64,000 nucleotides of DNA from Antedon mediterranea (lineage: Eukaryota > Animalia > Echinodermata): contig NC_092673.1 in the NCBI RefSeq assembly GCF_964355755.1, positions 16,799,648-16,863,647 of the forward strand. Direction: 5' to 3'. The notes beneath the pieces are model-generated. The model saw only the letters and a list, made by a program, of their open reading frames with translations. It did not search any database and was not told where the DNA came from. Shown here in pieces: positions 1-29,600 of this stretch. Both the position numbers and the translations under genes were made by a program. Numbering within the stretch: position 1 is the stretch's first letter; every line of letters begins with the position of its first letter.

Positions 1-169
1 ACACGCTGACCCCTAAATATAATCCCATTGTGAGTAGCTAACTCATCCTAAATTCTGTTTGCGTAGTGGCTAATGTCACAAACCGCATCTTCATCATCCT
101 TATTTATAGCCGAATCGGAAATTTGTATTGGTAATCGCGAAAGGGAGTCTGCAATTAATTTAACTCATT

Positions 170-3100
170 ACTTGGGTGTGTTGACATCATCTTTTGAAAA
201 CAAGATGGAGCTGATGATGAGCCAAAATAAACTGTACAAAAACGAAAAACACCATCATGTGTTATGAATGCTGTAAGGTCCCAACTATCAGAATCCAACT
301 CGAGCTGGTGGTAAGCAGACTAATTTAGAAAAATGAGTTGCCCCTTGGGTCTCACTTATTAGCTCTTCCACTATAGCTTCATTCGGTTTCCATAAATCGA
401 CACATATTCTGATGTTACTGTTTTTTTCCACGCTACTACTATAGGCGACACCCACTCAGAAGAATCAACTTTTTCATTGATGCCTTCAGAAACCACTGTA
501 ATTCTTCAGAAACTGCTTGCCGCACCGTAAATGGAAGTTTACGTAGTTTTTGTTAAACAGGTTTTATATCAGGACAAACTTTGACCTTATGTGTAAAACT
601 ACCTAGCCTTTCTGAAAACAAACATGGAAACTGTGATTGTACATCATTAAAAGTAGTCTCATAACATGAAAGTGTGCTCCCTTCAATATTGGGTAGTAAC
701 AAAGTGCGAGGCAGCGAGGCACGCGAGGCAGGGAAGGCATGCGAGGCAAGTAAGAAATTTATGCGAGGCATCGTTTTACCATCATCAAAAAATGCGAGGC
801 ATCATTTTATCATTTCTCAAAATTGCAAGGCAGGAAATCACCGAAATTGAAGTAGCCTAGGCCTAGGCCCGCTAGGCTAGTTTCCTTTTGCACCTGCCTT
901 GTATTTTAACCAACTTTATCCTGAATACCACAGCTTAGAATTAGTAGGCCTACTTTAATGAAGAAAAATCACATAAAAGTAACAATAAATCCATTAAATT
1001 GGTGATTTTACAGACGTTGTTTTTCTCGCATTTCGCACACTCAATGTTCAATATTTTGGTTTCTATGGAACGCCAAAAGAGCAAAATTAATTAGAGGGCT
1101 AAAAACTCTGTGGAATCCATTTATATTTAACGCATTATTTGGTGAAAATCAAGTACAATTTCAATAGATTTTGTCACTGTCAGTAAGGAAAAATGTTACT
1201 GTTCACCGGTGTACTGTTGATAATGTACACGGTTTCGGTAACCTTTTAAAGAATAAAATAGAAAAATTCATCATAATATCCTTAGTAGGATGTCCTAGGT
1301 CTAGACTAGGTAGTGATGTTGATTTAGGATCGATTATTATTCTTTGAAAACAGAACAGTATCAGCAGTAACATATTACAGCATTTTTATTGACAAATTAA
1401 CAAATATATATTTCACCAATAAATGCATGTGAAATTGACGCCTTCCACTGAGTTTTAGTCCTCTATTATCGTTGCTCTTTTGACGCTCCATAGAAACAAA
1501 AATATTGAACATTGAATAAGTGAAATTCGCGAACAGTGTGCGAGAAACACGCCTGTAAAATCATTAATTTAAGGATTTATTTGTTACTTTTTATGTGATT
1601 CTTTCATTAAAGTACTCATGAGGTATACTTCTAAGGTGTGGTATTCACACGATAAAGTTAGTTATCAAATTTGGAGTAAAAATACAAGCGAAGGAAACTA
1701 GCGCCAGGTTTATTAGTACGTACATGGACAACAATAAATAAAAATCGTTCGTAATATACCTAGCTTACTAAAACAGGAATAGTGTATCATTATTAAATAT
1801 TACACCAATTATTATTATATCAAAATTGATTAAATTATTTTCTACATAGGCCTCTTATCTAGGTTAGGGCTAAGCATATTAGCTAAAGTTTAATTTTAGG
1901 CCTAGTATTACAATTGTCGGACGTAAGTCTTTTTTCACACGCGCTCCAGAATTCTGTCGCAATTTTTTTCTTTGCGGCATGTTATTGGATCGCCATATCA
2001 GTTACCTTTTATTCACCGCCAGTTATTGAACTTGTCCTGGCAATCGCTGTTCACCTTATTTGCGAGAGAGGTACACGTGTTGTTCCTAGAGAATGGAATT
2101 TCAAAAATGTCTTTGGCACGCCGCTCAGAGAGAAGTCTGTGCGTTGCTGCTAAAACCACGTGCTATAGGAGGGGAATGCACCACAATCCTCTGAGCTGAG
2201 GGCTGAATCATTCCGCTACCTGCTAAATAGTACAGAGGGATTTTCCATCTCTCGGGTCTACCGGATCTAGGCGCAGGGGTGTGACAAAATATTATTTTCA
2301 CTCTGCTATGTTCGAGAGACATGTGAGTGAACACGCTCGAAATGCCAACAAACATTGCAGTCATTTGATGAGTGTGTCGCTATAACAATTATTGTTTATC
2401 GAAAGTTGAAGACTGTCGTTCAGATTTTTGAACCGTAGTTTGGGCACTTTTGTAAAAGTAAAATTTGACACGATATGACTTGAATGAAAAAACAATCGTT
2501 ACATAAAAATAAACAACATGATGAGTGTATACACGAATCTATTTAGATACGCTTGTATCGATTGATTATTAGGCCTATAATATAGCATAATAGCACGTTA
2601 AGATATGCCTCGCACCTTTTTGAAATTGTAAACTATATGCCTCGCATGCCTCGCACTTTTGGAAATGATAAAATAATGCCTCGCACAAATATTTGGCATG
2701 CCTCGCTTGCCTCGCTGCCTCGCACTTTGTCAACACTCTTCAATATTGATACCAAGGGCCTGTTAAAATATTGCCTTTTTCAACCACATAAAGTGTAGCA
2801 CATTCTGTATTGAATTTAACCTTAGCATTAAAACAGCCTACCCGTATTTATCTTATGTGTTGTGTAACTTTTAATTTGAGTTGCGCATTTGCCTAATTTG
2901 TTTCTAGCAAAATGTTTATCAAATAATTTAAGAGACAGTAAGGATGTGATGCTGTATCAAATATAAGTTGCATATCAATAGTGTTTATTTTGACAGACAC
3001 CATAACAGACTTCTTCCTTGAGGTAGCCATTGTACACAAAACATCATTTTCTGAATCACTTTATTGCAGTTTGTACTTGCAAACTCTAGTTTTTTAACTG

Positions 3101-3329
3101 ATGAATTTCGTCCATGGTATACACTAGCAAAATGCCCTCTCAGACCATAATGCTTAGCCTCACAGTCTGTAGAGTTTGCTAAATGTTTAGTACCATAGAT
3201 CCACACCTGTAACATCTCTTAGTGTTGGTATAACTATCATCAGGCCTTTCCGGGTATTTTTTAAATTTTGGCTTAGAGTTTAACCCCTGAGCAAGTGTTA
3301 TCTGGGTTCGTTAATGATACTCGTCGCCA
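170..3329 (-). pseudogene. Decayed Gypsy (Mag-like) LTR retrotransposon gag-pol remnant, interrupted by the insertion at 691-2738
   Basis: The minus strand gives PBS TGGCGACGAG (3320-3329, matching the tRNA-Ser(GCU) 3' end), zinc-knuckle remnants (CYRCGS, KHLANSTDC, GHFASV) and a protease-like VKINTIDMQLIFDTAS. It also gives RT N-terminal motifs FTHKVKV..KPV*QKLRKLPFTVR..SEWVSPIVVAWKK..IRICVDL and DLTAFITHDGVFRF..FGSSSAPSCFQKMM. Stops and frameshifts are present; the LTR boundary is unresolved. Confidence 0.85.
691..2738. mobile_element. Non-autonomous DNA transposon, MULE/Mutator-like (copy 1)
   Basis: Imperfect TIRs GGGTAGTAACAAAGTGCGAGGCA / TGCCTCGCACTTTGTCAACACTC with subterminal GCGAGGCA repeats. 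Perfect 9-bp TSD TTCAATATT (682-690, 2739-2747). A near-identical second copy is at 43964-49338. Confidence 0.9.
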
Positions 3330-3734
3330 ATTATGGTAGAGAGCAATAAAATAATACTAGAATAAACCGGTGGTTATTATTATTAGATTTTAATAACAGT
3401 CTTCTATTCCATCTCCTTTCCTACTACAGTACTCTACCAATGCGGTCTCCGCTACTGCCCTTATCGACAGACTATCGGATGCCACAGATGGTACCGTTTT
3501 GGTACTACCAGTCACGTATATCCTAATGAAATTTTGTGGAAGGAAATTGGCTAATGGAAAATCAAACGTGTTGGGGTAGGGCATAATCGTATCGGCCGCC
3601 AAACCTTTCTATTTGATCTAGGAAAGCTATGTGTTCTGTTGTTTGATAACCTGGCCAGGACAGATTCCTTTACGTTTTAATTTGTATAAATCTGCCTGTA
3701 TACACTTGTGACCAATTATTACTCATTTAAGCAT

Positions 3735-5958
3735 TTACTTGAACTTACTAAAATTGCAAACTGGTTTAATCTAATAAGCTTTCGTTAAATATTAAAAAAA
3801 AAACAAATTTATTATTTTTCGTTCAGTAAATAAACTAATCCCCCCCAACATTCCTAAATTATATTACGGCATCAGAGAAATTGAAAGAACAAAAGCAACA
3901 ACATTTCTTGGCATTTTTATTGACGAATACTTATCTTTTAGTTCTCATATCTATATATAAATTTACGTAAGGGCAAAATTCGGTAAATCGCGCGTTATTT
4001 CTAGAATGTTTACTCGATGGTATATAAAGTTGGTTCGTACTTTCGGTACTGATTTTAACCACCTGATGTAACCCTGTTTACTAATAAAATTGAGTTCGAT
4101 AAATAGTTATTGACGGTTAAAACGAATTTAGGTTCAACGATTTGCCCCAAATAGGGGTGTTTTTTGATCGTGGTATACACTGTCTAATGGATGTCCGTCT
4201 TGAAAAATACCCGCAGACAATAATACGAGGATGCTTCGCATTTTCCTATCTCCTCCTACGATAATTGTTTTTAATGGCTGAAAACCGGTTGAACAGCTCG
4301 AGTATAGCATCATAATGTTGAAGACAGGCCAATTTTCTTTAAAAAATACTATTTTGATAGATTTAATATACGTTTATACAAATGTATTGATTTGCGATGA
4401 ATGGAACATTCCAATCTCTGTTCCACAAGTGTCTATTCCCTCAGGCGTCGTAAAGGCAAGTACAGGTACTGTATACTCATAACAGAAATTCGATCGATTT
4501 TTTTTTTCAATCTGTGCTGCAGAGGTTGGATATAAATTTTTTTTAAACGGATAATGAGCTAGCGTTTTCACTCGCCGTATATTATGTACACATCTTTATT
4601 ATTGCAGTTAAACCACCCATATCATCACCCTTCCCTCACTGGCATGAGTAGCGTTGTAAAACCAGTAGAGGATAGGCCTACGGTACATCACATGCCCTAA
4701 ACGCAGAACAACTTTGGTGGGTAGGGGGTGGGTAGGGTAGGAACCAAACTTAGAATTTGCTCTAAGAAACAATGTAAAACCATTAGGCCTACTAATTAAG
4801 TTGAGTTAGATAATTTAATATTTATTGATGATTAAATCGAATTTATGATTTTCCCCGAATAGAGGTGGTTTTCACAAATTGTTTTACATCATATAAACAT
4901 ATATACGTCGTAGTGATGTATCGTTACATGTACTGTACTAATTCAATCGACTATGACGGTGATAGTTTCAACAAAGTATTAAATCGCAATGTTTTACTGT
5001 GTTTAGTGGTATAGTATTTGTAAAACATGAAAACAATAAATATTTCGTTAATAAATGGGTAAAGAATATATTTAAAAATTGTTCCTCTTTGCACCCATCC
5101 TCTTCCCATCCCTCAACCCAAATGTTACATACAAAACACAATTTAAGTTTGTTTAAATTTGACTTAAACAATTGGTCTCATTTTGTGACAAGTTTCTCTT
5201 TCGGAAGTAATTCCCAGGGTACTAATTTTACAGTACATAAATCAGTGTCTATTTATTCGTTCCTGTAAACGACATGTATTATTGTCCTGCGGTACGTACA
5301 TTTGAAATCGCCAGTTTTTTTAACGCTGAAATTATTATGTATTCGAGAACCATCTGTGGGCACGACCTAGATGGTACGCGAGCGAAGCGAGTGTACCATC
5401 TAGTTAATACAATTTCATTAAAACTATCAAGAGTGGTCGGTGTCCTCAATAAACTTAAACATGCCTTGCCTTCTTCCGTATTACTATTAATTTATAAATC
5501 ACTTTTTTTTCCACATTTAATTTATGGTATAACCGTTTGGGGTTTTTACTAATTTAAACCGTATTTATATTTTGTAAAAAAGAGCTTTAAGATCAGTTTA
5601 TAATGTACATTACCTCCACCATTCTGCTCCTCTTTTTGTCTTATCTAATACACTTAATATTTACGACTTACTTACAAAAAATGTTGCTTTATTTATGTTT
5701 AAATTCAAACATAATCAACTGCCCAGAATTGTTGATACTTATTATTTTCAAACTTTTAGTTCAGTTCATAATTATAATACCAGAAATAAATTAGATTATG
5801 CTTATGATTGTTTTAATACGGAGGTTGGCAAGCATGATATAACTTTTCAAGGACCAAAAATATGGAATTCTTTACCTGAAGAACTCAAAATTATTAATTT
5901 TATATCTTCATTTAAGTTCAAATTACATGAATACCTTATTTCTACTATTATTGTTTAA
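3735..5958 (+). pseudogene. 5'-truncated L2/CR1-group LINE ORF2 C-terminal remnant, split by a Helitron
   Basis: 3735-3949 encodes ELTKIANWF..NKLSLNIKK..IERTKATTFLGIFIDEYLSFSSH. From 5404 it continues INTISLKLSRVVGVLNKLK..IYKSLFFPHLIYGITVWG..HNYNTRN..FQGPKIWNSLP. Stops and frameshifts are present. Confidence 0.85.
3950..5403 (+). mobile_element. Non-autonomous Helitron
   Basis: 5' TCTATATATAAA and 3' CTAG, inserted between A and T with no TSD. The 3' hairpin is CTAGATGGTAC..GTACCATCTAG. Removing it restores the LINE frame (S-H-I-N-T). Confidence 0.9.
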
Positions 5959-6938
5959 GCTAATATATATCTGTCTTAAGTTAAATTATAACTGCATTTG
6001 TTAAGTTAAATCCACTTTTGGTTACCCGCAGGTGCTGATAGTACTTTTGTTCTGTTTTGTTGTTTTGTTTAAAAATTACAAAAAAAAATAAAATAAAGGA
6101 AGTGGGTAGTTTTGTTGTACTATAGTTGTTTTTAATGCTGATTATAGAAAGTTGTTATAGTGTTTCACAAATGTACAGTATATTCATAATCTTAAAACAA
6201 TATGATTAACATTAACAATAGTTACGATAACTAACTTATGCTTATTAATTATCCCAAGAGGTTCCCAATTATGTGTTGGGCCATTGGCACATGGTTGTTT
6301 CCTGTTCGGCCACATTTTTTTAAATATATATACTGTATATTTCTATATTGGAAACTTGCTTTTTTTCAGCCATTAGACTTTGATTAACCAATCTTGATTG
6401 GTCTATACTTTAGAACCAGGGAACTATTTTAATTAAATTGATAATCATCACCATGAAAAACATTTACTAGTTTTTGCTGCTTTTACAGTTTGAGTTTTTT
6501 TCCACAATTTGCGGATATTTGAAGAATATTTTGTAACAAATATTTTACAAAATTGTGTTGATTTCTTAAGGTGTTATTGTTGATTTTTGTGGTTTGCATT
6601 ATTTATTTGCGGTTTGACACAATTATCTTCCAAAATTTCTATTTTCTTGTTTCATTTTGATGACTTCATCATGTTAATATTTAGAATAAGTGGATCCTGT
6701 AATTTCCTCTATGCTACACTGTATACAATGTATCCTGCAAATACTGTATATAGATTACTACTGTATGATGACACAAAATAACACATTCCAGCACTGTGAA
6801 CATATTTACTTCATGTCATAAGAATGGTATAATCAATTTGCTGCACTCATTTTAACATGCATGCCTGTTGCTTTTGTGCAAATTTGTCCAAAGTGAGTTA
6901 GTAACATTTGTTTATATTGATGTTCATTCTTATTTCAG

Positions 6939-9900
6939 ATTTGAACCATAAACCACAGACTCATGTCTCATGGATGTAAGTATTTCTGAACTTTTTTATT
7001 AGTATTTGTTTAGGTTTATTATTTTGTGTGTAAATTGGTCATATAAGCACAGATAGAACACAACTTTATATTGTCATTTTGGAATTTACGTAATTGTATA
7101 TGTTTTATAACAGGCTTCAAAAGTATGTTTATGAAACTGTACATTTATATTCCACTATGACAGTATATAACGGGTTGGAAGATTTAAAAAAATCATCCTT
7201 GTCATAATTATTTCACCGAAATGATTTTTTAAATGATTATAATGCCTGCTGTATGTCACCATATCTTTAAATAGTTAGATTTATTTATAACACAAACACA
7301 TACTCATTTGAATTTTACATATTTTTTTTAGCCTGAAATGGGTACAGAATTTTTGTAATGGTAAGTAAGCCTTTCTATTTTTTACAATTCAGTTTTAAGA
7401 ATTAAAAATTTAATTTGAATATGTCATTGTCAAGTCAAGCTTTGTTTCTGTTTAAAAATGTATAATATAATTAGAAATAAAAAAATAAGAAATGTGTTCA
7501 TTATGTGAAGATAAGATGTGAAATCACATATTATAGGCATATAAATGAAAATAAGGCAGTACGAATAAGGAATCTATATTATTATCTATATTATAAGAAA
7601 GCGAGTTTGTATGCTTGTTTGTTATAAACGTTGCATACTGCACGCATTCATACACATGGGGTACCTAAATTGTACGGGGAATGTTTATGATTTATATCAA
7701 TATTTATTTTAGTTTGAATATTATCTGCCATCTTGGATCAAATGTAATGTCCTAAATGCGTATTAGATACTGGTGCTTGGCGTAATTAGGTACCTGTATC
7801 AAATGATGGGAATTGTACTGGGAAGGTTTTAAACTACACTAGGGTATAAAGTACTTGCTAGTTATATATAAGCACAAAATATGTGTAAAGGTTGTCAAAA
7901 TTCTAGAGAATTACACAATTGCACAAAATAAATAATTTCATATGGAGGGACAGACAGACACAGCCACAAATGTCTCATCAAGGTATAATCTTTGAAATCT
8001 ATAAAAAGTAGAAACAATTTCTCTTTCAGAGCACTGGTGGATCTTCTGTAGCTTTTTAGTTGCAGTCTTTGCAATCTCAATCTGTGTATTACCAACAAGA
8101 ATTGCCATAGGTATTTGGCTACTTCTTGTTGGAATTATCTGGTTTCTACATGATAAAGTGACCAAGTATCAAACTCACAAGACAAACGTTTCACATTACA
8201 AGAAGCTACCTGAAGGTAGGTAATATATGAGAGACAAAAGTTATATTTTATTTTATTTGAAAATAAAAAATAAAATACAAAACAGTGCAAAACAAATTTA
8301 AATAAATGGTCAACTTCAAGAGTATTAGTAAGCAGTAACCATGATTTTAACAAAATCTAGTATACAGTATTCACTACGGAGGCCCATAAGTTCCTATAAA
8401 GATATTTTGAAAAAGAATTGTAGGGATTGAAACAATATAAATTATGACTTTTTGATTACTGCAGATCAACGTATGGTATTAAATGTGAGCTCTGAAGGTG
8501 GAACTCTTCACCTCAAGGATGAAGACATAAAGTTGGTAATACCACCTGGAGCAATAGAAGAAGGAAAGGCAGTTAACATATCACTAGAAAATATTTTGGA
8601 GGAAATAGACATGCCTGTACTTCATCCTCATGAATCAATAATATCACCTATTGTTAAATGTGGACCAGAAGGCACCGTCTTCCACAAGCCCTGTTTACTG
8701 TCTTTTCGACACAGTGTTGTAAATGAAGAGTTTTGGAAATTTACATTACTTTTTAAAGAATGCTTTCAAGATAAATGGAGACAAATAGCATTAGAAAGCG
8801 ATAAAAAAGACATAAACTTTACTGTAGACAATGGTCAATGTTGTGTATCTTTAAATCATTTCTGTTCTAATTGTCTTTTGGGCTTTGAAGAGAAGAAGTG
8901 TTTAACGTTATTGACTTTTCAAAAGAGAACGAAAATGTCAGAAGGGGATTATTTGTTTCAACTTATAATACGACTTTGTAAACAGGAAGTGAAAAAGGTA
9001 ATTACTAATTTGATATTAGAGAGGTTTTGCAACGCTACGATAACGAAAACGGATACGTCATACACAGCTATTTGTTTTTGTAAGCCAGTAAAAATCTTTT
9101 TTGCATGGTAACGAAATATTGAGGGCGTCGTCCTGTATATGACTGCGGTCAATTTGAGCAAAACGCATTTTAGTAAATTACTTTTAGTAAATTACTTTCA
9201 ATAAATCTATAATTATATTATAATCATGAATCATTCCTGATTCAAATGCAAAATAGATCAAAAACTATACTCATTTTGTAGTTACGAATATGACTGGTGA
9301 TATTCGTCAACACAAATACGCTTTACTAATATGAAATGGGATCAGCTCAAAAGTTTAAAAAATGTGTGAAGTATCCGTTTTCGTTATCATATTTGTAATT
9401 TTCCAAAACCTCCCTAGGCGTTTGTTGTTCAGTAGGATTTAGTGGGGAGTTGGGAGGGGGCGTTTATTTGAGGGACGCGTTTATTCGGAGGAGATGCTTT
9501 TTATTTTAGTGTAATGGTAACATGTATAATCAAATAAATACCCCCTAGATATGAAAAAATACAACATAATTAATTTCAAGAAATGATAAAATACAGAAGA
9601 AATTGTATCAAAATGCTTGGTAAATTGCAGATCATGTCAATCAATGGATTCTACTACAAGTAATACAATATTGTGTATATGCATGTGGTGGGGCGTTAAT
9701 CGAGGAAATAAAGGCCCCAGGGCGTTTATTTGAAGGGGGAGGGGCATTTATTGAAAATGATGTGAAAACCTCCTTCTATAATAATGGGTCACCCCAAGGC
9801 TGACCCGAGGTCACGTGCGTTACTGACCGGTGCCGTAGCGGCCTCTTTGAATGAATGACATTAGACGGAACGGACGTAAATCGAGACTATGCTGTATTAG

Positions 9901-12900
9901 TACCAGCCCTACGCACGTTCCCTGGTGTTAGATACACTAGCCTATAGCCAGCAGGGTTTGTGTAAGCTTCCCGGCCTAGACTGAGCGGTATATAAGCCAG
10001 TTCTACGGTATATTGGAGGAACAACAGGTATTCACTGTGATTGAATAGGCTAGGCCTATAGTTTAAAGGGGGATTCTGGGTTTAAAATTGCTTTTAAATA
10101 TCGTTTATTTATTAAATAAAAAATATTATAACAATATAGACATGTCAGAATGAAGAAGTAATAACGAGAAATTAAAAAAATTAAATTTCATATACATTTT
10201 AGGGTAAATTCATGGAAAGTCTGTTTTTCAGCAGCTTGGGGAAGCTCATTAATATTCATGAGATATTCACAAAATTACGTATTCCAAACTCGCGACGTCA
10301 TGTACGTTGTGTTTGTCAACTAAAGGCTGGTTTCCTGTCGACGTAAGAAGTCGAATTTTGCAACGATTCTTGCGTTTCATACGTTTCTTACGTCTCTTAC
10401 GAAAGTTGAGAAAAAATTGACGTCGTTGACGTTAGTCAAGATCGTGTCGGGCCGCAGAGAAACATCTGTAGTTATGCTGCTCCCGAAAGTTGAAATTTTG
10501 GCTGTGAAACACACGTCGTATGCTTACGTCGATTTTAGTGTTGTTACGAAAGTTGAAAATTTTTTTCTTACGTCGGTCGGATTTATGACGTATTTGAAAC
10601 AACATCTCTGATTGGTGTTTCTTTTTAGAGCGGGTTTTATCATTTTTCGCGCAAAATGTTGAATGTTGTTATTGTAGCCTACCTGTCAGTGCAGCACACC
10701 AACATGTTATTTTCAGTAGATAAGCTAGGCCCTAGTATTAGTAAAATACTTAATTAATACTGTACGGTACCGTACTAATAGGAATTGATTTGACCAAATA
10801 ATCAAACTAGCCTAGGCTAGTAGGCCTATGTATTATTTGTATGAATCAAAATATGAATTAATTATCCTGGCCCTCTAGACCTAGCCTTAAATAGTTTTCA
10901 AAATAAAAAAAAGGCAAATCATTTCGAGATTCCTATTATTATTAGACCTACCTAGGCCCTAAACTAGGCATTGGCCTATTGGCCTATAAGCATATCTAAT
11001 CGAGCATGAGATAGTAGGCCTACTACCGCAGTAAGATACCCATTATTTACAGGCCTATAATCTATATATAAATTTACGTAAGGGCAAAATTCGGTAAATC
11101 GCGCTTTACTTCTAGAATTTTTACTCGATGGTATATAAAGTTGGTTCGTACTTTCGGTACTGATTTTAACCACCTGATGTAACCCTGTTTACTAATTAAA
11201 TTAAGTTAGATAATTAGTTATTGACGATTAAAACGAATTTAGGTTCAACGATTTGCCCCAAATAGGGGTGTTTTCCGATCGTGGTATACACTGTCTAATA
11301 ATGGATGTCCATCTTGAAAAATACCCGCCACAAAAATGCGAGGAGGCTTCGCATTTTCCTATCTCCTCCTACGATAATTGTTTTTAATAGCTGAAAACCG
11401 GTTGAACAGCTAGAGTACAGCATCATAATGTTGAAGACAGGCCGATTTTCTTTAAAAAATACTATTTTGATTTAATTTACGATTATACAAATGTATTGAT
11501 TTGCGATGAATGGAACATCCCAATCTCTCAGTCTGCCAGAGTTTGGTTTAACACAAGTAGGTAAATTTATGAGCCCTTGGTTTAACACATACGGTAGGTA
11601 AATATATGGGCCCTTTGAGAATAAACTTGAACAATACTGTAAATACATAATTACCTATTTTTGGTTCTCATTTGAATCGAACATTTCTTACTGTGAATGT
11701 TCGTACTGTTAGATGTAATATAAAAATATATACAAATAAACTTATTACTGAGATTGTGGATAGGCTTTACTGTTAGATATATAAACACATTATTATATAC
11801 AAATAAACTATACTGACAGTTCCTTCTCAACGTTTGTATTAATTAATAATTACCAAAAATATAAACGTCGTAGTGGTGTATCGTGACTATATTTCAATCG
11901 ATTATGACAGTGACAGTTTTAACAAAGTATTAAATCGCAAATGTTTTACTGTATTTAGAGGTATATTATTTATAGGCCTATAAAACATGAAAAAAATATT
12001 TCGTTACTGAGTGCATAAAGAATATATTTAAAAATTGTTCCTCTTTGCACCTATCCGCTTTCCCATCCCTCAACCCTAAAACTCCCTGATTAGAACATGA
12101 TTAGGCTAAAATTATAGTAGTAAATACATACAAATGTTATTGTCCGGCTTTATTTCACTATAAGGACATACACATTACGTCATAACTCTTGTCGCTCATT
12201 GGTTGCTTGTTACGATTGCGCTTACGTCTCTTGCGAAAGTTGACTTCAAGTCAACTTTCGTAAGAGACGTAAGAAACGTGACGCAAGGGCGTTCATTCAA
12301 GCGTAAGATAAAAAATCCCGGTTTCCTGTAAAATCGGAAGAAAACGTCGTAACGCAACAATTGTTAGGTCATCGGTTTCCTGTAAAATCGTTTGTCGTTA
12401 CCATTTTTCTTACGTTGCGTCGATTTTATAAATTTTCGATCGTAATCGGTTTCCTGTAAAATCCGCATTTCTTACGACAAATCGACGTAGTCGCAACAAA
12501 AGTGATGTTCTTACGTCGACAGGAAACCAGCCTTAATTTACATCTCTCTCCCCTGTCAAACGACGACCACCCGATAATTGTGAAATACATTTTTTTTAGA
12601 TTTTCTAAGCTAGGCCTAAAGTGTAATAATAACAGTAGTAGCATATATTTATTTGACATTTAATGAAATACAAAATTTAGTACAGATTACGGAGTCATAA
12701 ATTATACTATTTTTATACCTCTATAGTACAGATCGTATTATCGGCTTCACGTACAATACTACTCTAGGCCTAGCCTAATGGGCGAGAGCCATTCTGACTA
12801 GAGATTCCATGCCACGATGGCTACGTTAAAACAATGGGGCCCATGGGCCTAGAGCTAGCCTACTACTAGACGTTTGGCCCATAAATAACAAACCCATCCT

Positions 12901-15900
12901 ATCAACCAAACTCCTAAACAATCTAAACCTAAAACGTTCTACAAAATCGGCTGTAAATATTGAAGCAAAACAAGGTCCGATCGCCGTCCACACGTATGGT
13001 GTCCCGATCGTCTAACTAAGTAGGCCTAAAATAAAATAGGCTTAGTTTACTCTCCAAAAAGCGGATACTCATGCATCAAGCAAGTAGACCAGGTAGTAGG
13101 AAGGAGACCTAGCCGATCCGGCCCAGTTAAAAATTGAGCTAGCTAGTGTAGTAGACCCTATGCGAATTGATACTACCAGGCCTTTTACTACAGGCTGCAC
13201 TACACAAATATTCCAACTCTCTCATTCGAGCTATATTAAGGCTGGTTTCCTGTCGACGTAAGAAGTCGAATTTTGCAACGATTCTTGCGTTTCATACGTT
13301 TCTTACGTCTCTTACGAAAGTTGAGAAAAAATTGACGTCGTTGACGTTAGTCAAGATCGTGTCGGGCCGCAGAGAAACATCTGTAGTTATGCTGCTCCCG
13401 AAAGTTGAAATTTTGGCTGTGAAACACACGTCGTATGCTTACGTCGATTTTAGTGTTGTTACGAAAGTTGAACATTTTTTTCTTACGTCGGTCGGATTTA
13501 TGACGTATTTGAAACAACATCTCTGATTGGTGTTTCTTTTTAGAGCGGGTTTTATCATTTTTCGCGCAAAATGTTGAATGTTGTTATTGTAGCCTACCTG
13601 TCAGTGCAGCACACCAACATGTTATTTTCAGTAGATAAGCTAGGCCAGTATTAGTAAAATACTTAATTAATACTGTACGGTACCGTACTAATAGGAATTG
13701 ATTTGACCAAATAATCAAACTAGCCTAGGCTAGAAGGCCTATGTATTATTTGTATGAATCAAAATATGAATTAATTATCCTGGCCCTCTAGGCCTAGCCT
13801 TAAATAGTTTTCAAAATTAAAAAAAGGCAAATCATTTCGAGATTCCTATTATTATTAGACCTACCTAGGCCCTAAACTAGGCATTGGCCTATTGGCCTAT
13901 AAGCATATCTAATCGAGCATGAGATAGTAGGCCTACTACCGCAGTAAGATACCCATTATTTACAGGCCTATAATCTATATATAAATTTACGTAAGGGCAA
14001 AATTCGGTAAATCGCGCTTTACTTCTAGAATTTTTACTCGATGGTATATAAAGTTGGTTCGTACTTTCGGTACTGATTTTAACCACCTGATGTAACCCTG
14101 TTTACTAATTAAATTAAGTTAGATAATTAGTTATTGACGATTAAAACGAATTTAGGTTCAATGATTTGCCCCAAATAGGGGTGTTTTCCGATCGTGGTAT
14201 ACACTGTCTAATAATGGATGTCCATCTTGAAAAATACCCGCTACAAAAATGCGAGGAGGCTTCGCATTTTCCAATCTCCTCCTACGATAATTGTTTTTAA
14301 TAGCTGAAAACCGGTTGAACAGCTAGAGTACAGCATCATAATGTTGAAGACAGGCCGATTTTCTTTAAAAAATACTATTTTGATTTAATATACGATTATA
14401 CAAATGTATTGATTTGCGATGAATGGAACATCCCAATCTCATACAGTCTGCCAGAGTTTGGTTTAAAAAAAGTAGGTAAATTTATGAGCCCTTGGTTTAA
14501 CACATACGGTAGGTAAATATATGGGCCCTTTGAGAATAAACTTGAACAATACTGTAAATACATAATTACCTATTTTTGGTCCTCATTTGAATCGAACATT
14601 TCTTACTGTGAATGTTCGTACTGTTAGATGTAATATAAAAATATATACAAATAAACTTATTACTGAGATTGTGGATAGGCTCTACTGTTAGATATATAAA
14701 CACATTATTATATACAAATAAACTATACTGACAGTTCCTTCTCAACGTTTGTATTAATTAATAATTACCAAAAATATAAACGTCGTAGTGGTGTATCGTG
14801 ACTATATTTCAATCGATTATGACAGTGACAAAGTATTAAATCGCAAATGTTTTACTGTATTTAGAGGTATATTATTTATAGGCCTATAAAACATGAAAAA
14901 AATATTTCGTTACTGAGTGCATAAAGAATATATTTAAAAATTGTTCCTCTTTGCACCTATCCGCTTTCCCATCCCTCAACCCTAAAACTCCCTGATTAGA
15001 ACATGATTAGGCTAAAATTATAGTAGTAAATACATACAAATGTTATTGTCCGGCTTTATTTCACTATAAGGACATACACATTACGTCATAACTCTTGTCG
15101 CTCATTGGTTGCTTGTTACGATTGCGCTTACGTCTCTTGCGAAAGTTGACTTCAAGTCAACTTTCGTAAGAGACGTAAGAAACGTGACGCAAGGGCGTTC
15201 ATTCAAGCGTAAGATAAAAAATCCCGGTTTCCTGTAAAATCGGAAGAAAACGTCGTAACGCAACAATTGTTAGGTCATCGGTTTCCTGTAAAATCGTTTG
15301 TCGTTACCATTTTTCTTACGTTGCGTCGATTTTATAAATTTTCGATCGTAATCGGTTTCCTGTAAAATCCGCATTTCTTACGACAAATCGACGTAGTCGC
15401 AACAAAAGTGATGTTCTTACGTCGACAGGAAACCAGCCTTTATCTATACCATTCCGGTAGGTCGAGTCGACCTTCAATCAAATACTGTACATCGTTCATG
15501 TTGTGATTATAGACTCGACCCGACCAGTTTGGTATTGTTGTATCTGCTTATCACGTGATGATGCCAGGCATGGGCAGCAGAGAGAGCACGTGTATCGTCG
15601 TCGTCTCGCTCGATCCTCAGCAGGAATGTACAGTATACGTTACGCTTCATTGATTTTGATTTTTCCCTAAGTCGGTGCGAAAATCGGCAAACGTAAAGTG
15701 CAAACATATCTAATTTTTCACTGTTTTGATGAATTTTCATAAAAAATTGACTTTATAAATGGGAAGACCGACTAAAATTACATCAGATAAGTATAATTTT
15801 ACAAAAGTAATTGATATGGTTAATGATAACGAGCCGTCGGAAGATGGACCATTTCACGAATTTCCTATTTTGTAACCACAGTGTGATTTTGCCGTAGCTG

Positions 15901-18900
15901 CACTTGTAATCTGGCCTGATTTCACAGCCTTCGTTCTGCTTCACTGGGCGCTTATATAAATTGAAACTTTTACCGTTCAAGAGACAAACAAATATATTTT
16001 ACATTTTTTACTATTCATTTTAAACCGGGAACCCCCCTTTAAGCCTCGTTCCTACTATTACGAGGTACGAGCCATAAGGGGTCAAGCTCAACCCTACTAG
16101 CCTAGCTAGTACTAAGGGATTGCTCACCGGGATTGCTCAGAGTGAGTGAGTGGCCGAGCGGTTAAGACAGTGGAACCGTAATTACGTAGCCATAACATCG
16201 GCAAGGGTTCAAGGACAAGGCTCACTCGCTCCATGGTTCTGGTGGTAGAACGAGTCTTCTCGGATAAGGACTATAAACCGTAGGTCCAGTGTACACATAG
16301 TACATCTTTCGAGACAAGTAGGGGATTACCCCGGTGTACTAGTCCACACAAACACCGGTCAGTCTAATTACCGAAAACAACCATAAATAAAATAATCTAA
16401 ATACCGAAAACAAATTTGTATAATATTTTTTAAATGTCGCCCTCTATTAGTGGGTGTTTCTAAATCTAAGACCATAACAGAGACAAAACCGCGCGCGCAA
16501 ATGCCAAGGAAGACCCTACGATGGTAGTGTGCACAAAATACAACTAAAAATCGTGCAATCAATCAATGATAACATCGCATTTACTTACAGAATCTATAAA
16601 AATATTTAAATTTTAGTCTTTTGATTTTTGATCCAGAAACCAGCGCATTAGCCATTACTCCTTACAATAATTGTGAATATGTTAATCCATAGTATAGAAA
16701 GTAAATTGACTATGATTAATCATGATCAATTTAATTTTCAAAGATAATTATACAAAGATACTAGGGACTATAAAGTATACTTAAAACAAGCTCACTATAA
16801 AGGATTCACAATAAAATCTATTCAGTAAAATTACCGTAGGCGAGTAAATAACGTTTTTATCCTTAATCGCTTCAGTATTCACTTAAGTGACGAAAATCGG
16901 GGACGAAAACGCAAAGTTAGGTAAAATCATGCTTTGTTTTTGAAAAGACTAAAAACGAAATGTGTTTATAGATTTTGTAAGTAAATGTAGTCTACGGTGT
17001 ATTTCATTGAATTAGTACGATTTTGAGTTGTATTTTGTGCACACTTGCACACTACCATTTCTTAGGGTCTTCCATGACTTTTGCGCCTCTGTATGGTCTT
17101 AGCTTTAGAAACACCCATCAATAGGGGGCGACATTAAAAAAAATATTATACAAAATTTGTTTTCGGTATTTAGATTTTTTTTATTTTTTTAACGGTTTGT
17201 TTTCGGTTGTTTTCGGTAATTAGACTGACCTGTTGGTCCAGATCCTTCACTAACTGAGTTAGTGAGAAGTCGAATAAATTAAAAAAAAAAAAAATTGCCA
17301 TACATACACACCAACGGAATTAAGGTACGTTTAGTCCTACCTAGGCTGGCCTGTGTGTTTATCACTACCAGCAGCCACACATTGAAGTAGACTACTTTGT
17401 ACTCTTCTGTGTATAATCCTACATCTCGGTTACCAGGGGGCAAGAGACCAGTCCCGCCTAAAAGGTAAGCTAGTACGCCTTGTGTAATAATAGTAGTACC
17501 ATTGCACTCTCAGCCGATTCACAACAATGGCCTCTGTGTCAGGAGGATACGAATTATCTGATATGAAAGATTTTATTTACTATTGGTAAACCTTGACCAT
17601 GTGCCCTAAAGACATAGAATTAAATAAAAGTAAAAAGAGAAAATTGGCCTTCAATTTGATATCAATGGTAGTAAATCCAAATTTTTTGGAATTCTATACT
17701 TAAACAACCATTCTAAAATTGAGACTGTATTGTGTATTTCAGGAGGTGATTGAAGAACATGAACAATATAACGAGCAGTGTATGCAACCATCAGTAGATA
17801 TACTTGTAATTAATAAAGACATGAAAATTACTGTTAAAGTAGAAGACGGGAAATGGGATTTTCAGGATAATGTGAAAGTAAAATATAATAGTGCAAATTA
17901 AAAAATAAGAATATAAATTACTATTACACAAGTTATATCAGTATAACTTTTTTTAAATAATATAAATTAAAAAAATAAAGAGTATAATGATCAAGCCCTT
18001 TGATATGGTTTCTATTGTTCTAGACTATCCCTGCTGACTACATATGGGGCCCGTGGGGTCAAAGACCACACATGAGATTTGAATTGCAAAGTAAATCGGA
18101 AAATCTTTTAAATGCAACAATAGAATGGTCACAAGAGGACAACAAAACTCATTCAATAAAAGTGATTGGTATGTATTTAAAATGGTATGGTACAATTTAT
18201 GTAACAAATAAAGTCTACAATTGATGTAATAAATGAAAATGGAAGTGATTAAACAAACATCAGACATGTTCTTTCTCTCTTAACATTGCTTTTTGAACAA
18301 AGTTTTCATCTAATGCAAGTGACCTCTAAGTTTGATAACCACTCAAGTGGATGTTTAGAATGGAACAAATTTGAAAATGGGCCATGTATTGTCAGTGATT
18401 GAAAATGGCACTCAAATGTCACACTAAATTTACATGTACACATAATTGGTTCAGTACTGTTGTACCATGCCAAACTTTATTTACTTGCAATTTAATTTAT
18501 TTATTTTTTTCAGAAAATCCAGAAAATCCATGGTAAGTAGTAATGTAATGGTAATGTAACCACACCCACAGTAACTCAGCAACACCAATTGTTGTTAAAT
18601 GTGTAAATTGGCAACAAAAGAATGAGTTGTACCACTAGTCTTTGTTACTGATTTATTTCTGAAAATGTTTTAAATTAAAAGTGTTAGCAATAAGTCATGA
18701 TTAGTACAAGTATGATTTATTAACGTTTTAAATATGTGTACCTTTTCATTTCTAGTCTGAAATATATGAAGTCTTGTTGGAGGTTTATAAAAGGTATTTA
18801 ACTTTTCTTATTTTTGTTAGCTCAGTGTCTGTAAGTTGTGCTTAAAGACTGGATGTAGTTTGTAAGAAATATATTTTCTTTAAATTTAACTATAAATTAT

Positions 18901-19706
18901 TTTAAGCTAATTTTAGTAAGTCGTGTAACTGAGGCCTTGGGTCAGGGGGCTCAAAGATAATAATTTTCAGTTACTAATTTATCGCCTGGTGTAATACCTT
19001 TCCTTAAAAAAAATATGTAAGAAAACTTTGAAAAATGGAGCTTATAGGTCCCTGAAAATTGTCTCCAGAGAATTTTTTTAATAGAGGTGCTGCCAGAAAT
19101 TACAATTATACTTTTATTTGAAAATGTCAGGCTATGCTGGAAAGAAAAATAGGCCTGATTTTAGATACACTGCAACCAATTAGTAACTGTTTGACTACGA
19201 CTAGGCAATAGTATTTACATGTTTTCGCTGATAGCGTCTGGGAATTTCCTTTTTAAAATCAGCGAGACAGTTGCAATCTATGCTGTCACAGCTTATATAA
19301 TACTTGGTACTTGTACAAGTAATAATACATAATTTCCTTTTCCTTCTCCCTTCTTTGACTTCCCTCACCTTTCCTTTCTTTTTTCTACCCAGCCCAGAAA
19401 AATCCTTCAGAGAACCCCTTTTAATAGTAACAAATCTAAATGAAAGATCTTTAAAAGCTCAATCAAAAATATTTTTGTTCTACTTTGATTTCAGAACACT
19501 GGTGGATAGTTACTGGATTTTTTTGTTGTCTACTTGTAATCACTGTAATCTTGCTGATTTGCTTTCCTAAAGCACAAGGAATAATTGGCTTAGGTGCTAC
19601 TTTTGTGCTTGGTAGTGGTGTTCCATTAATCAGGTATATGCATAAAAAAATGACTCATGCTCAGCAGTCGGAAAACACAACGCCAGGCAGACAGGCAACA
19701 GTCTAA
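6939..19706 (+). CDS. Spliced host gene (5' end upstream of the window): 2TM module - ZU5 - UPA - 2TM module; UNC5C-like/FIIND-like membrane protein
   Basis: Exons 6939-6975, 7332-7360, 8030-8215, 8465-8997, 17743-17877, 18024-18168, 18514-18532, 18756-18793 and 19495-19706. All splice sites are AG/GT with matching phases (1,2,1,1,0,0,1,2,1), and the joined frame is open to the TAA at 19704-19706. AATAAA follows at about 19872. Confidence 0.8.
7585..7861 (+). mobile_element. Candidate short Helitron-like element
   Basis: Starts A|TCTATATTATAAG with a GTTT-rich segment and ends CTAG|T. The 3' hairpin is weak. Confidence 0.35.
8030..8215 (+). CDS. Exon encoding the first 'EHWW' two-transmembrane hairpin (missed by the ORF track)
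   Basis: ctttcag|AG CAC TGG TGG ... GAA G|gtagg translates to EHWWIFCSFLVAVFAISICVLPTRIAIGIWLLLVGIIWFLHDKVTKYQ. It is 186 nt, phase 1-1, and paralogous to the terminal exon. Confidence 0.8.
8465..8997 (+). CDS. ZU5 domain exon plus the start of UPA
   Basis: ZU5 motifs SSEGGTLHL..IKLVIPPGAI and IISPIVKCGPEGTVFHKPCLLSFRHS, ending in SLNHFC. Acceptor tgcag| and donor aaag|gtaatt. Confidence 0.92.
9017..9416. mobile_element. MITE with imperfect TIRs
   Basis: TAGAGAGGTTTTGC..GATAACGAAAACGGATAC versus GTATCCGTTTTCGTTATC..CCAAAACCTCCCTA. Confidence 0.65.
10324..12533. mobile_element. Non-autonomous PIF/Harbinger element, copy A
   Basis: TIR AGGCTGGTTTCCTGTCGACGTAAG at both ends, TSD TAA/TAA. Contains a Helitron-derived internal segment. 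Confidence 0.92.
13239..15439. mobile_element. Non-autonomous PIF/Harbinger element, copy B
   Basis: Same TIRs, TSD TTA/TTA, nearly identical to copy A. Confidence 0.92.
16142..17294 (+). mobile_element. tRNA-derived SINE with a Deu/Nin-type central domain, interrupted by a foldback MITE
   Basis: A-box TGGCCGAGCGG (16151) and B-box-like GGTTCAAG. Deu/Nin-like TCGGATAAGGACTATAAACCGTAGGTCC and AGTAGGGGATTACCCCGGTGT. AATAAA plus poly(A) at 17281-17294. Confidence 0.75.
16355..17232. mobile_element. Foldback MITE with long imperfect TIRs
   Basis: CCGGTCAGTCTAATTACCGAAAACAA ... TTGTTTTCGGTAATTAGACTGACCTG. The inverted similarity extends for more than 200 bp; no clear TSD. Confidence 0.8.
17743..18168 (+). 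CDS. Two UPA-like domain exons (17743-17877, 18024-18168)
   Basis: EVIEEHEQY..MKITVKVEDGKWDFQDNVK|TIPADYIWGPWGQRPHMRFELQS resembles the UNC5 UPA segment EIPFYHIWSG...HCTFTLER. Canonical splice sites, in phase. Confidence 0.75.
19495..19706 (+). CDS. Terminal exon encoding the second 'EHWW' two-transmembrane hairpin and a short tail
   Basis: EHWWIVTGFFCCLLVITVILLICFPKAQGIIGLGATFVLGSGVPLIRYMHKK..ATV*. The acceptor tttcag| is in phase with the preceding micro-exon. Confidence 0.8.
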
Positions 19707-22756: not shown

Positions 22757-23156
22757 TTTTGTTTCATATTTGGCATACCATATCATATACGGAATTCTTT
22801 ATACTGCATTATTTTAATGGCAGATCTTTCTTCTTTTAATTTTTTGGATCTTATATTCGTATCCTAGGCTAGGCCTAGCCTAATACTACTCTCTACTCTA
22901 GCCTAGGCCTAGCTAGGCTATATTGCTAGGCTAGGTAGGCTAGGCCTAGGCCTACTACCTCTAGCCATGCTCTCGCTAACAAAGGCCTACTACTACTAGC
23001 CTAGGCTTTTAACCCTAGCTAGGCCTACTACTTGATAGTACTATAGTAGGCCTAGTAGAGTAGTAGGCATGGAGGAAGTCTCCACAACTTGTTGTTAGTT
23101 AAGAGATAACAGACGTCAACTGCATTGGATTGGATTGGTCCTCAGACGAAGCAGGT

Positions 23157-24071
23157 CAAGTCGGCCCTAAACCGTCTCGGCCAAAGTCAAGTCGGCCCCA
23201 CGTCAAGTCGGCCCCACGTCAAGTCGGCCCCACGTCAAGTCGGCCCCACGTCAAGTCGGCCCCACGTCAAGTCGGCCCCACGTCAAGTCGGCCTCAAGTC
23301 AACTCGGCCAAAAACTAATTGGTCAACTCGGCCACAATAAAGTATGGAACGCAAAAAGTGCTTACGGTAATATTATTATGATTCTTACTAGCCTATCCAC
23401 GCTTTAAAAAAAATAAAGAAATAAAAAAAATAATATAATTAAATAATATATAAAAAAATGAACTCATTGCCGATATGAATATAAGTACCCGCGTGTTACA
23501 AAAACACGTGCAGGTACCGCATTTTAGTAAATCGAACACGGAGGCCTACGTTCCACCATTTGGCCATAGAAAAAATGATCGTACATATCGTTTTTGTCCA
23601 TGATTTGCTTTTTAAAAAAAGGGGAATCCCCGGTCAGTGAAAACACGCAGCAGTTGTAGATATCGAAAAAGCTGCCAAAGGCGCAGGGAGGCGCAGCTAC
23701 GAATTGTTTTCAATTGTGCAATTTGAAATTTTATTAAACGTAAATAAAGAAAAGTTGGTGAAATCATTCCTATTTTTTTGCTAAATATATTATATTGTCT
23801 AAATATTAATATTCATTAAAAGTCAGAATTATTTATAGTTAAAAAATTGTGAAGAAATATTATTTATCAATCCCCTTCATTTGCACTTTTTGCGTTCCAT
23901 ATTTTAACGGGGCTGAGTTGACCGATTATTTTTTGGCCGAGTTGACGTGAGGCCGAGTTGACTTGAGGCCGAGTTGACTTGGGGCCGAGTTGACTTGGGG
24001 CCGACTTGACTTGGGGCCGACTTGACTTGGGGCCGACTTGACTTTGGCCGAGACGGTTTAGGGCCGACTTG
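23157..24071. mobile_element. Non-autonomous TIR element with subterminal 16-bp tandem repeats
   Basis: CAAGTCGGCCCTAAACCGTCTCGGCCAAA followed by (GTCAAGTCGGCCCCAC)n at the left, with the inverted counterpart at 23930-24071. TSD unclear. Confidence 0.85.
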
Positions 24072-26651: not shown

Positions 26652-29600
26652 ATGGTTATTCGTAGGAGAGGACGTGAGTTGGCCAAAAAGATACTTTATT
26701 TAAGAATATTAACGAGAAGAATTAAGAGGAGAAAGGAGTTGAACAAAGCACCAAGAATCCACAAGTTCTGGGAGAGGAAAGTGCTAAAAGAAAGAATAGA
26801 GTTCGGGCAGTACCATACATTATTTAAGACACTGATAAAAAACGACAGAGAATGGTTTTTTAGGTAGGCCTATATATATTAATAACATTTAATTACGGTA
26901 TTATTAATATCTTTTTAGGCCTAGGCCTAGATGTTTAATTGTAATTTGCATTCATAATTATAATGTTTGCCTAGGCCTAGGATATATGGATTTTTTTAAG
27001 GCCATGGATTGGTCTAGGCTAGGCCTAGTTATTATATTTAGCCATGGAGATTTAGCTAGGCCTAGTTAGTAGAGTACATCATACATGGACCTGGCTAAAG
27101 ATGAAGGTCACAGTTCATTTCAGCCGCCGAGCTGGCGTCTATATAAAGACGATGGTGAGTAAAATAGGCCTAGGTTAGGATAGGCCTATATAGGCTTACA
27201 GTATTTAGGCCTATATGCTATGATCAAGACACTCCTAGACAGATCTTTATTCTAGGCTAGTAAAGTAGGTAGGTTACTACAACTAGAAGCCAATCCACAC
27301 ATGGTCTACACTACTACTACTGTACACCCATCTACAGTGGTAGCCTAGAGAAGTACTAAACGGATAGGAAGTATGTATTACTCCTACTGTTGTTATTTTG
27401 TTGAAAAATTAAAATCTAAATTGATTAAATAGTGCATACAGTACACAATGAACAATTGTAGTCTAAATAAAATATCCCAAACAAAGTGCATTTATTGCCA
27501 TAGAAGATTGAATACATAATCACAAATAATACATTTACTAATCATGAATTAACTTTGACATTTGGCAAATCAATTCTGTTATTACTTTTTAAAATAGTCA
27601 CGGAACAATTGCATAATTTTTAGTTCCATATCTTCCTTGTCTTCCTCGTTTACTCTTCGCATTTTCTTTGCTACCATCGTGCCGAATGTATCGGCTTCGT
27701 CTTCTTCTCCGCTTCCCTTAATCAGATCTATAAGGTCATTGTCTGTTACCCCACTCTCAACCTGAACAATTGAAATTAATGAAAGATTTTGACATTTCTA
27801 TCTAAAAACAAATTTCAAATTTTCCACACTCTTCTAGCACTGTTTATTCAACAACAAAAAATAGGTATGCTTTTGCAAATTCATGATTATTTTAATATGC
27901 TATGTGAGAATACCTACATGCTTTTCTGTTTTGGAACATTTTCCTTTTGGCGTCTTTGACCAAGCTTTTTTAACCACTGCTGAAAATTAAAACAAAAAAG
28001 CTTCGGTAATTTTGCAGCTTGGCATAACATTATGTCTGGAAACGCCATAGTACTGCTTATCATTATCAACACACAACTTTTTAGTACAATAGTAAATTAC
28101 CAATATTGATATATAGTAATGATTTAAATACTTACGGTTCGGTCTTTCGACTGTCCTCTTGACTACTAAAAAGAAAAACAAATTAAAGTGTAGTTTCAGA
28201 TATACATGAATTTCTGGAATAGGTGATGGCCTAGGAATAGTGGTGCACCTGCCCACCCATTCTAGCATAATAACACTTTGTATTAAATTGTTAACTATCA
28301 TGATTGAATATTTACCTCTTGTAACATCAGCTTTTATTTGGGCAGCATCTGCTGAACCTTCTTCCAGACTTCCTTCATATCCTGCAAAAGCCCCTTCCAA
28401 GTCGTCCGAGACATTACCCAATAAGTCGGCTTCTTCTGTTTCATTTTGCAACTCAGTACCTTCTCCTAAAATTACAATAAATAATGTTTTTTTTTATTTT
28501 TAAGCCTTAAAAGTATGTAGTGTTGGTACAAACTATTTTGTAGTAATATGTAAAATGTCATTTTTTGTTATTTATAATTTTGTTTATTGTCTTCAGGTAT
28601 TTAAGGATGACGCCGGAAAGATTTAGTTATCTTCTGTCTGCGGTTGAGCCCTATCTAAAGATAAGACAAGACAGAGGTCGTACTGCAATTTCAGCAGAAG
28701 AAAAGCTTGTGATAACTTTGCGTTATCTGGCTACGGGTGACTTGATGGCATCACAAACATTTAACTTTCGGGTTGGTCGTGCAACAGTTTCTAGCATAAT
28801 CCGGGAAGTTTGTGATTCAATTTGGACAGCTTTAAATAAGAAATACCTAATGCTACCATCAAGTGAGAATGAATGGATGGCAATTGCAGAAAAATTTGAC
28901 AATGATTGGAATGTTCCTTATGCGATTGGTGCAGTAGACGGTAAGCACATTGCTATCAAGTGTCCCAAATTTGGCGGCTCGATGTACTATAACTATAAAG
29001 GCTTTCATAGTACAGTATTAATGGCAATTTGTGATGCCAGTTACTCATTTGTATGGACAAGCATTGGCTCATATGGGCGGGATAATGATGCCGCTATTTT
29101 TGGTGCTTCATCATTTTTCAAAAGAGCTGATTTTGGAAAGCTAAAGCTGCCACCACCATCGGTTGTGGGTGGTCAACAATTGCCTTATGTTTTATTAGGG
29201 GATGATATATTTCCTCTTAGAACTTGGTTAATAAAACCATATGGTGGCAACAATTTGACTGATGAAGAGGAAGTGGCAAATTATAGGACATCGAGAGGAC
29301 GCCGAACCATCGAAAACACCTTTGGTGTAATGGCTGCAAGGTGGCGCATATTTAGGCGTCCTATAAGAGCAAATATTGAAACTGTTGACCAGATTACAAA
29401 AGCTGTAATCTGCCTACACAATTACCTAATGCAAACTGATAATGCACACTACATACCCAGCGGGTTTGTTGACAGCTGGAGCAATGGAGAATTTAAAGAA
29501 GGGGAATGGCGCAGTGTTGTGCAAGATGATGAAACTGGCCTTCAAAATATAAGAAGGGTGGGGTCAAACAATTATACGGCTACTACCAAAGAAACAAGAG

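Follow-up and report, generated by a model that had tools for sequence, protein, structure and literature searches.

What stands behind the UPA domain when a ZU5-UPA protein ends without a death fold? To our knowledge, the ZU5-UPA switches studied to date signal via a death fold. The question is raised by a gene of the crinoid Antedon mediterranea that lies on the forward strand at positions 6939-19706 of a 64,000-nucleotide stretch (the window; RefSeq assembly GCF_964355755.1, contig NC_092673.1, 16,799,648 to 16,863,647). As predicted from its exons, this gene has a C-terminal architecture of ZU5-UPA, amphipathic helix, membrane hairpin and stop, which we consider real and apparently undescribed. 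An earlier note on this DNA had proposed the same order with no death fold behind UPA, and the RefSeq protein XP_071948789.1 (P0012) bears it out: 150 of 308 residues (49%) are identical between P0012 and the window model, colinearly through both micro-exons and the terminal exon, and no Death or DED Pfam match was found on the window terminal exon or on P0012. RefSeq models are themselves predictions, and that of P0012 starts inside ZU5.

The nine exons of the model, all on the forward strand, splice in phase into one frame, as the earlier note had read them. Each is preceded by AG and the first eight are followed by GT, the phases run 1-2-1-1-0-0-1-2-1, and the joined product stays open over 443 codons in one frame, against 45 and 33 stops in the other two. 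No start codon is present in the model, whose first exon opens in phase 1. Micro-exon 1 (6939..6975, phase 1 to 2) would encode a linker and the start of the first amphipathic helix; it is placed by splice signals and phase, with weak homology, and is the sole strict acceptor-donor open pair within 1-8029. Micro-exon 2 (7332..7360, phase 2 to 1), assigned to the same helix, has a strong donor and an acceptor with 8/11 pyrimidines, and it fell outside the top six candidates when these were ranked by homology. Exon 3 (8030..8215) carries the first HWW hairpin, with two hydrophobic helices, and a polar linker; exon 4 (8465..8997) carries the ZU5 domain and the start of UPA. After an 8.7-kb intron that contains two transposon copies, exon 5 (17743..17877) provides the middle part of UPA; with the seven paralogs as queries, tblastn reached it from six (E 7e-6 to 1e-3), and it did so from P0012 as well. 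The final part of UPA lies in exon 6 (18024..18168), which was found by tblastn from P0012 at E 0.007. Micro-exon 7 (18514..18532, phase 1 to 2), a short linker that aligns to P0012, is the sole strict acceptor-donor pair within 18169-19494. Micro-exon 8 (18756..18793, phase 2 to 1), the second amphipathic basic helix, is placed by homology to P0012 and to a second paralog, XP_071948739.1 (P0002): among the 1391 AG-GT candidates of its phase in the window, it scored 41 against the matching 12 residues of these proteins, the next best scoring 16. The terminal exon (19495..19706) encodes the second HWW hairpin, a basic tail and the stop, with 56% identity to P0012 over 57 residues, and AATAAA/ATTAAA signals follow 3' of it at 19823 and 19872. 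DNA contigs of the same organism span the introns; none of the matches listed shows a joint at a predicted splice site, which has no bearing on expression.

The identity of the first domain is clear, as exon 4 matched ZU5 (PF00791) at E 1.2e-20 with 74 bits against a cut-off of 21, in agreement with the earlier note. The closest proteins to this exon among 264 candidates were all from A. mediterranea (7/7 matches, 55-71% identity), followed by Anneissia japonica. Neither single window UPA exon gave a Pfam match to UPA, and FIIND (PF13553) was matched by none of the window exons or paralogs. Exons 5 and 6 are colinear with the UPA part of the paralogs in the ZU5-UPA alignment, and P0002 matched PF17217 (UPA) at E 6.5e-5, which is under the cut-off. 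Structure models were built from A. mediterranea RefSeq proteins rather than from the spliced window product. The alignment-based model of one of them, XP_071957970.1 (P0003), reached a mean pLDDT of 75.8 and about 86-98 across ZU5-UPA. Its best structural match was the cytoplasmic domain of UNC5b (3g5b; E 2.9e-21, rmsd 2.4 Å, 294 columns), and ankyrins ranked next, then NLRP1 (7crw, E 5e-9) and, far lower, CARD8 (7jn7, E 2e-3). UNC5B was the sole match below E 0.001 when alignment A3 was compared with solved structures, and the Atlas search with P0003 returned one FIIND cluster, only at rank 7 with a score of 0.87. Homology together with the modelled paralog fold thus places a UPA domain after ZU5 in the window gene.

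At the end of ZU5 lies an HF/C motif (8857..8865, forward strand; residues 215-217 of the model), identified from its alignment column. The nucleophile column holds S, T or C in 11/11 crinoid rows, preceded by HF in 10/11, and the motif among 155 proteins reads HF followed by S, T or C in 80, differs in 30 and is gapped in 45. ZU5 autoproteolysis uses S, T or C and leaves the fragments bound to each other (PMC3210808; published work is cited here from excerpts of the papers). Self-cleavage at HF/C is likely, because the residues at the crinoid cut site are exactly the three nucleophiles of this known chemistry (PMC3210808). The window module is of the UNC5CL/PIDD type and not of the FIIND type. 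The FIIND-type sensor suggested in the earlier note was therefore abandoned, given an HFC rather than an SF/S motif, the lack of a FIIND Pfam match and the best fold match to UNC5b.

The C-terminal layout is not confined to the window. It recurs in two A. mediterranea genes, one encoding P0012 and the other P0003/P0008, the latter with the order DED-like pair, membrane segments, ZU5-UPA and hairpin. In a membrane scan with a Kyte-Doolittle (KD) cut-off of 1.9, covering the 70 proteins with both ZU5 and UPA among the 155, a hydrophobic segment followed UPA in four (P0002, P0003, P0008 and P0012), all from A. mediterranea, and in none of the 57 ZU5-UPA proteins beyond P0001-P0013; a Death domain was present in most of the 62 proteins scanned with Pfam. 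In DNA contigs of the same organism, the terminal exon recurs in diverged form, with 14 differences over 132 bases in one case and 17, plus 13 gap letters, over 180 in another; the ZU5 exon does so with 19-43 differences over 131-303 bases. Some contigs have loose ends at 19714, which we read as a P0012-like C-terminus. Because of the P0012 match and these diverged exon copies in the same organism, the layout is that of a small subfamily and not a one-off. The literature, mostly open access and without supplements, gave no account of a membrane hairpin behind UPA, in line with the view in the earlier note that the layout was uncharacterised; the source-data tables of PMC8195603, cited from its excerpts, could list one. 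The phrase "instead of a death fold" is correct for the slot behind UPA, but it does not extend to the whole protein, since P0003 has an N-terminal DED-like pair and the 5' end of the window gene is missing.

The two hairpin modules of the window are homologous, with a local score of 78 against 26 +/- 5 for shuffles (0/1000 as high; z 11), and the HWW module of P0002 is homologous as well (z 6.0-8.4). In P0002, this module is one helix at the protein's end, behind a DED-like pair. The helices before the first and second hairpins are amphipathic, with moments of 0.52 and 0.61 (shuffle p 0.007 and 0.013, respectively), and the first hairpin has KD means of 2.49 and 1.87-1.95. In the C-terminal hairpin, the hydrophobicity of the second helix is only moderate, with a best 19-residue KD mean of 1.54. 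The tail of a single-sequence model of P0012 shows a helix at 234-248 and a hairpin at 250-271 and 275-299 with pLDDT 76-89; this model is poor over ZU5-UPA (mean pLDDT 43.6) and was used for the C-terminal helices only. Because basic residues flank both hairpins on either side, ZU5-UPA is predicted to be cytosolic, with both hairpins leaving it there; no signal peptide was seen. The hairpin exons had no Ninjurin match in Pfam. A fold search with the hairpin gave generic helical matches only (best Z 7.0, none at or above 8 among 48,161 chains), the Atlas gave no usable feature match and only unnamed structure rows, and PADLOC families, compared with a view to bacterial 2TM defence effectors, returned nothing at E 1 for 4/4 proteins, in a search that detects short membrane segments poorly. 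A comparison of the P0012 hairpin region with longer proteins gave 0/267 candidates at E 10, which counts as weak evidence. We also considered the middle membrane region of P0003 as a homologue of the first window hairpin, and this was rejected at z 0.4.

By homology, the window gene belongs to a crinoid expansion that shuffles ZU5-UPA with DED-like pairs, Roc-COR and membrane segments. The helical pair in these A. mediterranea proteins aligns across members and gives weak matches to DED (E 1.7e-6 to 0.016), none of which reaches the Pfam cut-off. P0001 has the order ZU5-UPA-ZU5-UPA-DED-like pair, P0002 ZU5-UPA-DED-like pair-HWW tail, P0005 (XP_071965522.1) Roc-COR-DED-like pair-ZU5-UPA-DED-like pair, and P0009 DED-like pair-ZU5-UPA. 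The RefSeq models of P0010 and P0012 begin at or inside ZU5. Several A. mediterranea members are placed on a contig of equal length and have near accession numbers, which suggests a genomic cluster. Lineage-specific expansions in which ZU5-UPA and death folds are shuffled are known from marine invertebrates (PMC8195603). The earlier note had also considered that the unit might repeat as (ZU5-UPA-2TM)n; no second ZU5-UPA was found within the window, and tandem ZU5-UPA occurs in the paralogs P0001 and P0006, so the repeat was not borne out here. The ZU5-UPA tree comprised 22 rows (12 crinoid and 10 others), without P0006, P0007, P0008 and the majority of the distant relatives. It recovered a crinoid clade (98/99), Antedon with the window (100/98) and the window with P0012 (97/91), and ZU5-UPA alone grouped the window, P0012 and P0003 (94/90), an arrangement in which 4/500 label shuffles were equally clustered. 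The rest of the Antedon clade consists of DED-pair or bare members, and the end branch of the window is long (0.46). It is most likely that the layout arose by exon shuffling, the anchor module having moved directly behind UPA once in the Antedon lineage. Among the wider set of proteins, P0087 has a Rel homology (NF-kB-type) domain in the same chain as ZU5, UPA and Death, P0104 has one in the same chain as ZU5 and a kinase domain, and P0124 combines fibronectin type III repeats with ZU5 and Death domains.

What might such a protein do? Our leading reading, held tentatively and at somewhat less than even likelihood, is that of a self-cutting ZU5-UPA protein of the UNC5CL/PIDD type that is anchored by its hairpins and, held at the membrane, acts in trans as a scaffold or decoy for paralogs with death folds; the likelihoods that we attach to this and to the other readings below overlap in part. 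An N-to-S acyl shift at the cysteine would give a hairpin-ZU5 half and a UPA-hairpin half that remain bound to each other. The ZU5 half would hold UPA in check, and its loss would free UPA to self-associate or to bind UPA-DED fragments of paralogs, and this binding could set the place and the threshold of paralog assembly, with the hairpin and its amphipathic helix serving as the membrane anchor. UPA self-association and ZU5/UPA autoinhibition have been described in NLRP1/CARD8 (PMC7794386, PMC11760013), and this logic of ZU5 inhibition and UPA assembly may carry over by analogy. UNC5CL retains both a membrane helix and autoproteolysis (PMC10084454). An anchor is favoured over an effector because, in P0002, the HWW module forms a single-helix tail that follows a DED-like pair, and a portable anchor would fit because the module in the window gene sits both before ZU5 and after UPA.

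The same features could be read in another way, in which the hairpin is itself the effector: once the protein has cut itself and shed the ZU5 half, UPA would cluster the helix and hairpin to form a lesion or channel in the membrane. Such a protein would be sensor and executioner in one, without a death fold, adaptor or caspase between UPA and the membrane lesion, and we regard this as improbable. The module does fill the death-fold slot: its amphipathic helix is basic, its loop is short, and its second helix is rich in glycine and only moderately hydrophobic (KD 1.54-1.84 across the window, P0012 and P0003). UPA lowers the assembly threshold of its fused partner in NLRP1/CARD8 (PMC7794386), and in invertebrates other death effectors, Bcl-2 domains for example, are found fused to ZU5-UPA (PMC8195603). 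On the other hand, the homologous P0002 module is plausibly only an anchor, and a further copy lies N-terminal to the cut, in the inhibitory half. NINJ1, to which the earlier note had likened the output, has two amphipathic helices and both are extracellular (PMC10307626), whereas here there is one and it is predicted to be cytosolic. A NINJ1-like membrane effector is therefore the weaker reading, with the P0002 tail and the predicted cytosolic helix counting against it.

Returning to the scaffold or decoy, several points weigh against it. The P0003 hairpin has no detectable homology to the HWW module (z 1.2-2.2; 1.5 and 2.2 against those of the window), so the single origin of the layout depends on the ZU5-UPA tree, in which the decisive branch (94/90) falls slightly short of the star level of the tool. 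UPA oligomerisation is known for UPA of the FIIND type, and the window UPA appears closer to UNC5b. The family members are known from sequence alone, and cleavage is a prediction, though a cysteine at the cut site is chemically allowed. The 5' end may carry death folds, in which case no partner would be needed. Two further points concern the first hairpin: database searches returned no protein in which it is joined to ZU5, and read-through of the exon-3 donor leads to a stop at 8221, followed by AATAAA at 8262, 8269 and 8301.

The last of these raises the possibility that the first hairpin exon ends a separate upstream transcript or a short polyadenylated form, so that the ZU5 gene would start at an ATG near 8473 and not be flanked on both sides. 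Three AATAAA signals within 80 bases of the read-through stop fit this, as do the terminal position of the homologous exon in P0012, in P0002 and at 19495 and the RefSeq models P0010 and P0012, which begin at or inside ZU5. However, the exon-3 donor (AAG/GTAGGT) scores 6/7, an in-phase acceptor lies 249 bases on and leaves little promoter space, AATAAA is common in DNA of 28-32% GC, and RefSeq starts inside ZU5 resemble truncated models. We consider a separate transcript doubtful. UNC5CL has a membrane anchor before ZU5; the hairpin exon in phase 249 bases upstream is a candidate counterpart, with two helices and a predicted join. The doubled layout of two hairpins is probable from the exon model. 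Of the flanking hairpins described in the earlier note, the C-terminal one is matched in P0012, and no protein in the searches shows the first one connected to ZU5.

Where the gene begins bears on its output. Either further exons lie more than 6.9 kb upstream, or the gene would start at an ATG at 6861; this ATG opens a possible alternative first coding exon (6861..6892, forward strand), predicted from the DNA alone, with a strong donor at 6892 and in phase with the exon at 7332. Splicing the 6892 donor to the 6939 acceptor, over a 46-base intron, was tried and discarded, as stops result from both nearby ATGs. It is possible, though unlikely, that an upstream DED-like pair as in P0003 makes this a multi-pass death-fold signalling protein with an N-terminal effector, both hairpins being anchors; the output would then change and the anchor reading would stay. 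P0003 and P0008 carry such a pair, P0003 is the sister of the window and P0012, and the window model lacks a start, its first exon opening in phase 1. Ahead of the first HWW, the sequence fits the linker behind the DED-like pair of P0002 gaplessly (score 2 against -18 for shuffles, p 0.03), a weak likeness. Against this, a profile of seven DED-like pairs run over the six window frames gave a best E of 3.7, so such an exon would have to lie more than 6.9 kb upstream. In addition, there is no homology between the first module and the middle membrane region of P0003, and the in-phase ATG at 6861 could give a local start.

The locus could also be a young shuffling product that has no role of its own, or a copy in decay within a family that is expanding. 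The length of the window end branch would fit, as would the large number of ZU5 and terminal exons that this organism has as paralogs and the transposons in intron 4. We regard this as very unlikely: the nine exons remain stop-free at about 49% identity to the A. mediterranea counterpart, with micro-exons and cut motif kept, and the indels in the contigs of a second sample lie outside the exons among the best-supported matches listed.

The nearest known counterparts of the window protein are UNC5CL and the invertebrate UNC5CL-like proteins, which share a membrane-held ZU5-UPA with a motif of HF followed by S, T or C; the distant UNC5CL-like relatives scanned mostly have the order membrane helix, ZU5, UPA and Death. 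UNC5CL differs in that its membrane helix is single and N-terminal and a death domain closes the chain (PMC10084454), whereas the window protein has a hairpin and no death domain after UPA and a second hairpin probably before ZU5. In PIDD1, too, an HF-nucleophile motif ends ZU5 and UPA follows, and self-cleavage releases a C-terminal fragment (PMC3210808, PMC7883297); PIDD1 is soluble, however, with LRRs, two ZU5 domains, a death domain and a serine nucleophile. NLRP1 and CARD8 share the ZU5-UPA fold but have the SF/S motif of FIIND and a C-terminal CARD, neither of which is present in the window gene. The nearest tree rows, XP_071948789.1 and XP_071957970.1 (annotated as "UNC5C-like" and "uncharacterized"), have the same ZU5-UPA, hairpin and stop, the latter differing by its N-terminal DED-like pair and a hairpin of unclear homology. 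The likeness to NINJ1 is one of outline only, an amphipathic helix ahead of a pair of membrane helices (PMC10307626), and NINJ1 has no ZU5-UPA (PMC10307626). A UPA fused only to a membrane hairpin would be a natural test of whether UPA assembly is a general output for other cargo, and it also bears on whether members without a death fold are membrane-held regulators. The crinoid family offers a compact case of immune domain shuffling by phase-1 exon modules (ZU5-UPA, DED-like pair, Roc-COR and HWW anchor). A lytic hairpin would make the protein a newly built kind of lytic sensor that needs no caspase; a hairpin that is an anchor would be of moderate and largely evolutionary interest.

The window around the gene is AT-rich (26-46% GC per kb) and holds many repeats. 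Intron 4 contains two near-identical 2.2-kb elements (about 10323-12535 and 13238-15440) with terminal inverted repeats and TAA or TTA flanks, and part of the element occurs again at 3949-4358. Their 3-base target duplication suggests non-autonomous PIF/Harbinger elements. A 380-codon open frame on the forward strand at 28547-29689 matched DDE_Tnp_4 (E 2.4e-27), a Harbinger-like transposase, and a 168-codon frame on the other strand at 27987-28493 had no Pfam match. Further downstream on the forward strand, 56023-56922 holds part of a reverse transcriptase (RVT_1, E 3.4e-14), and 62238-63170 a gag-like frame that includes a zinc knuckle. A palindrome of ~4 kb occupies 57081-61069, with arms that are 95-100% complementary and a spacer of <200 bases. 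Tandem arrays of 46-base and 71-base units lie at about 35374-38500 and 50543-54000, and 16-base units form inverted arms at 23149-24071.

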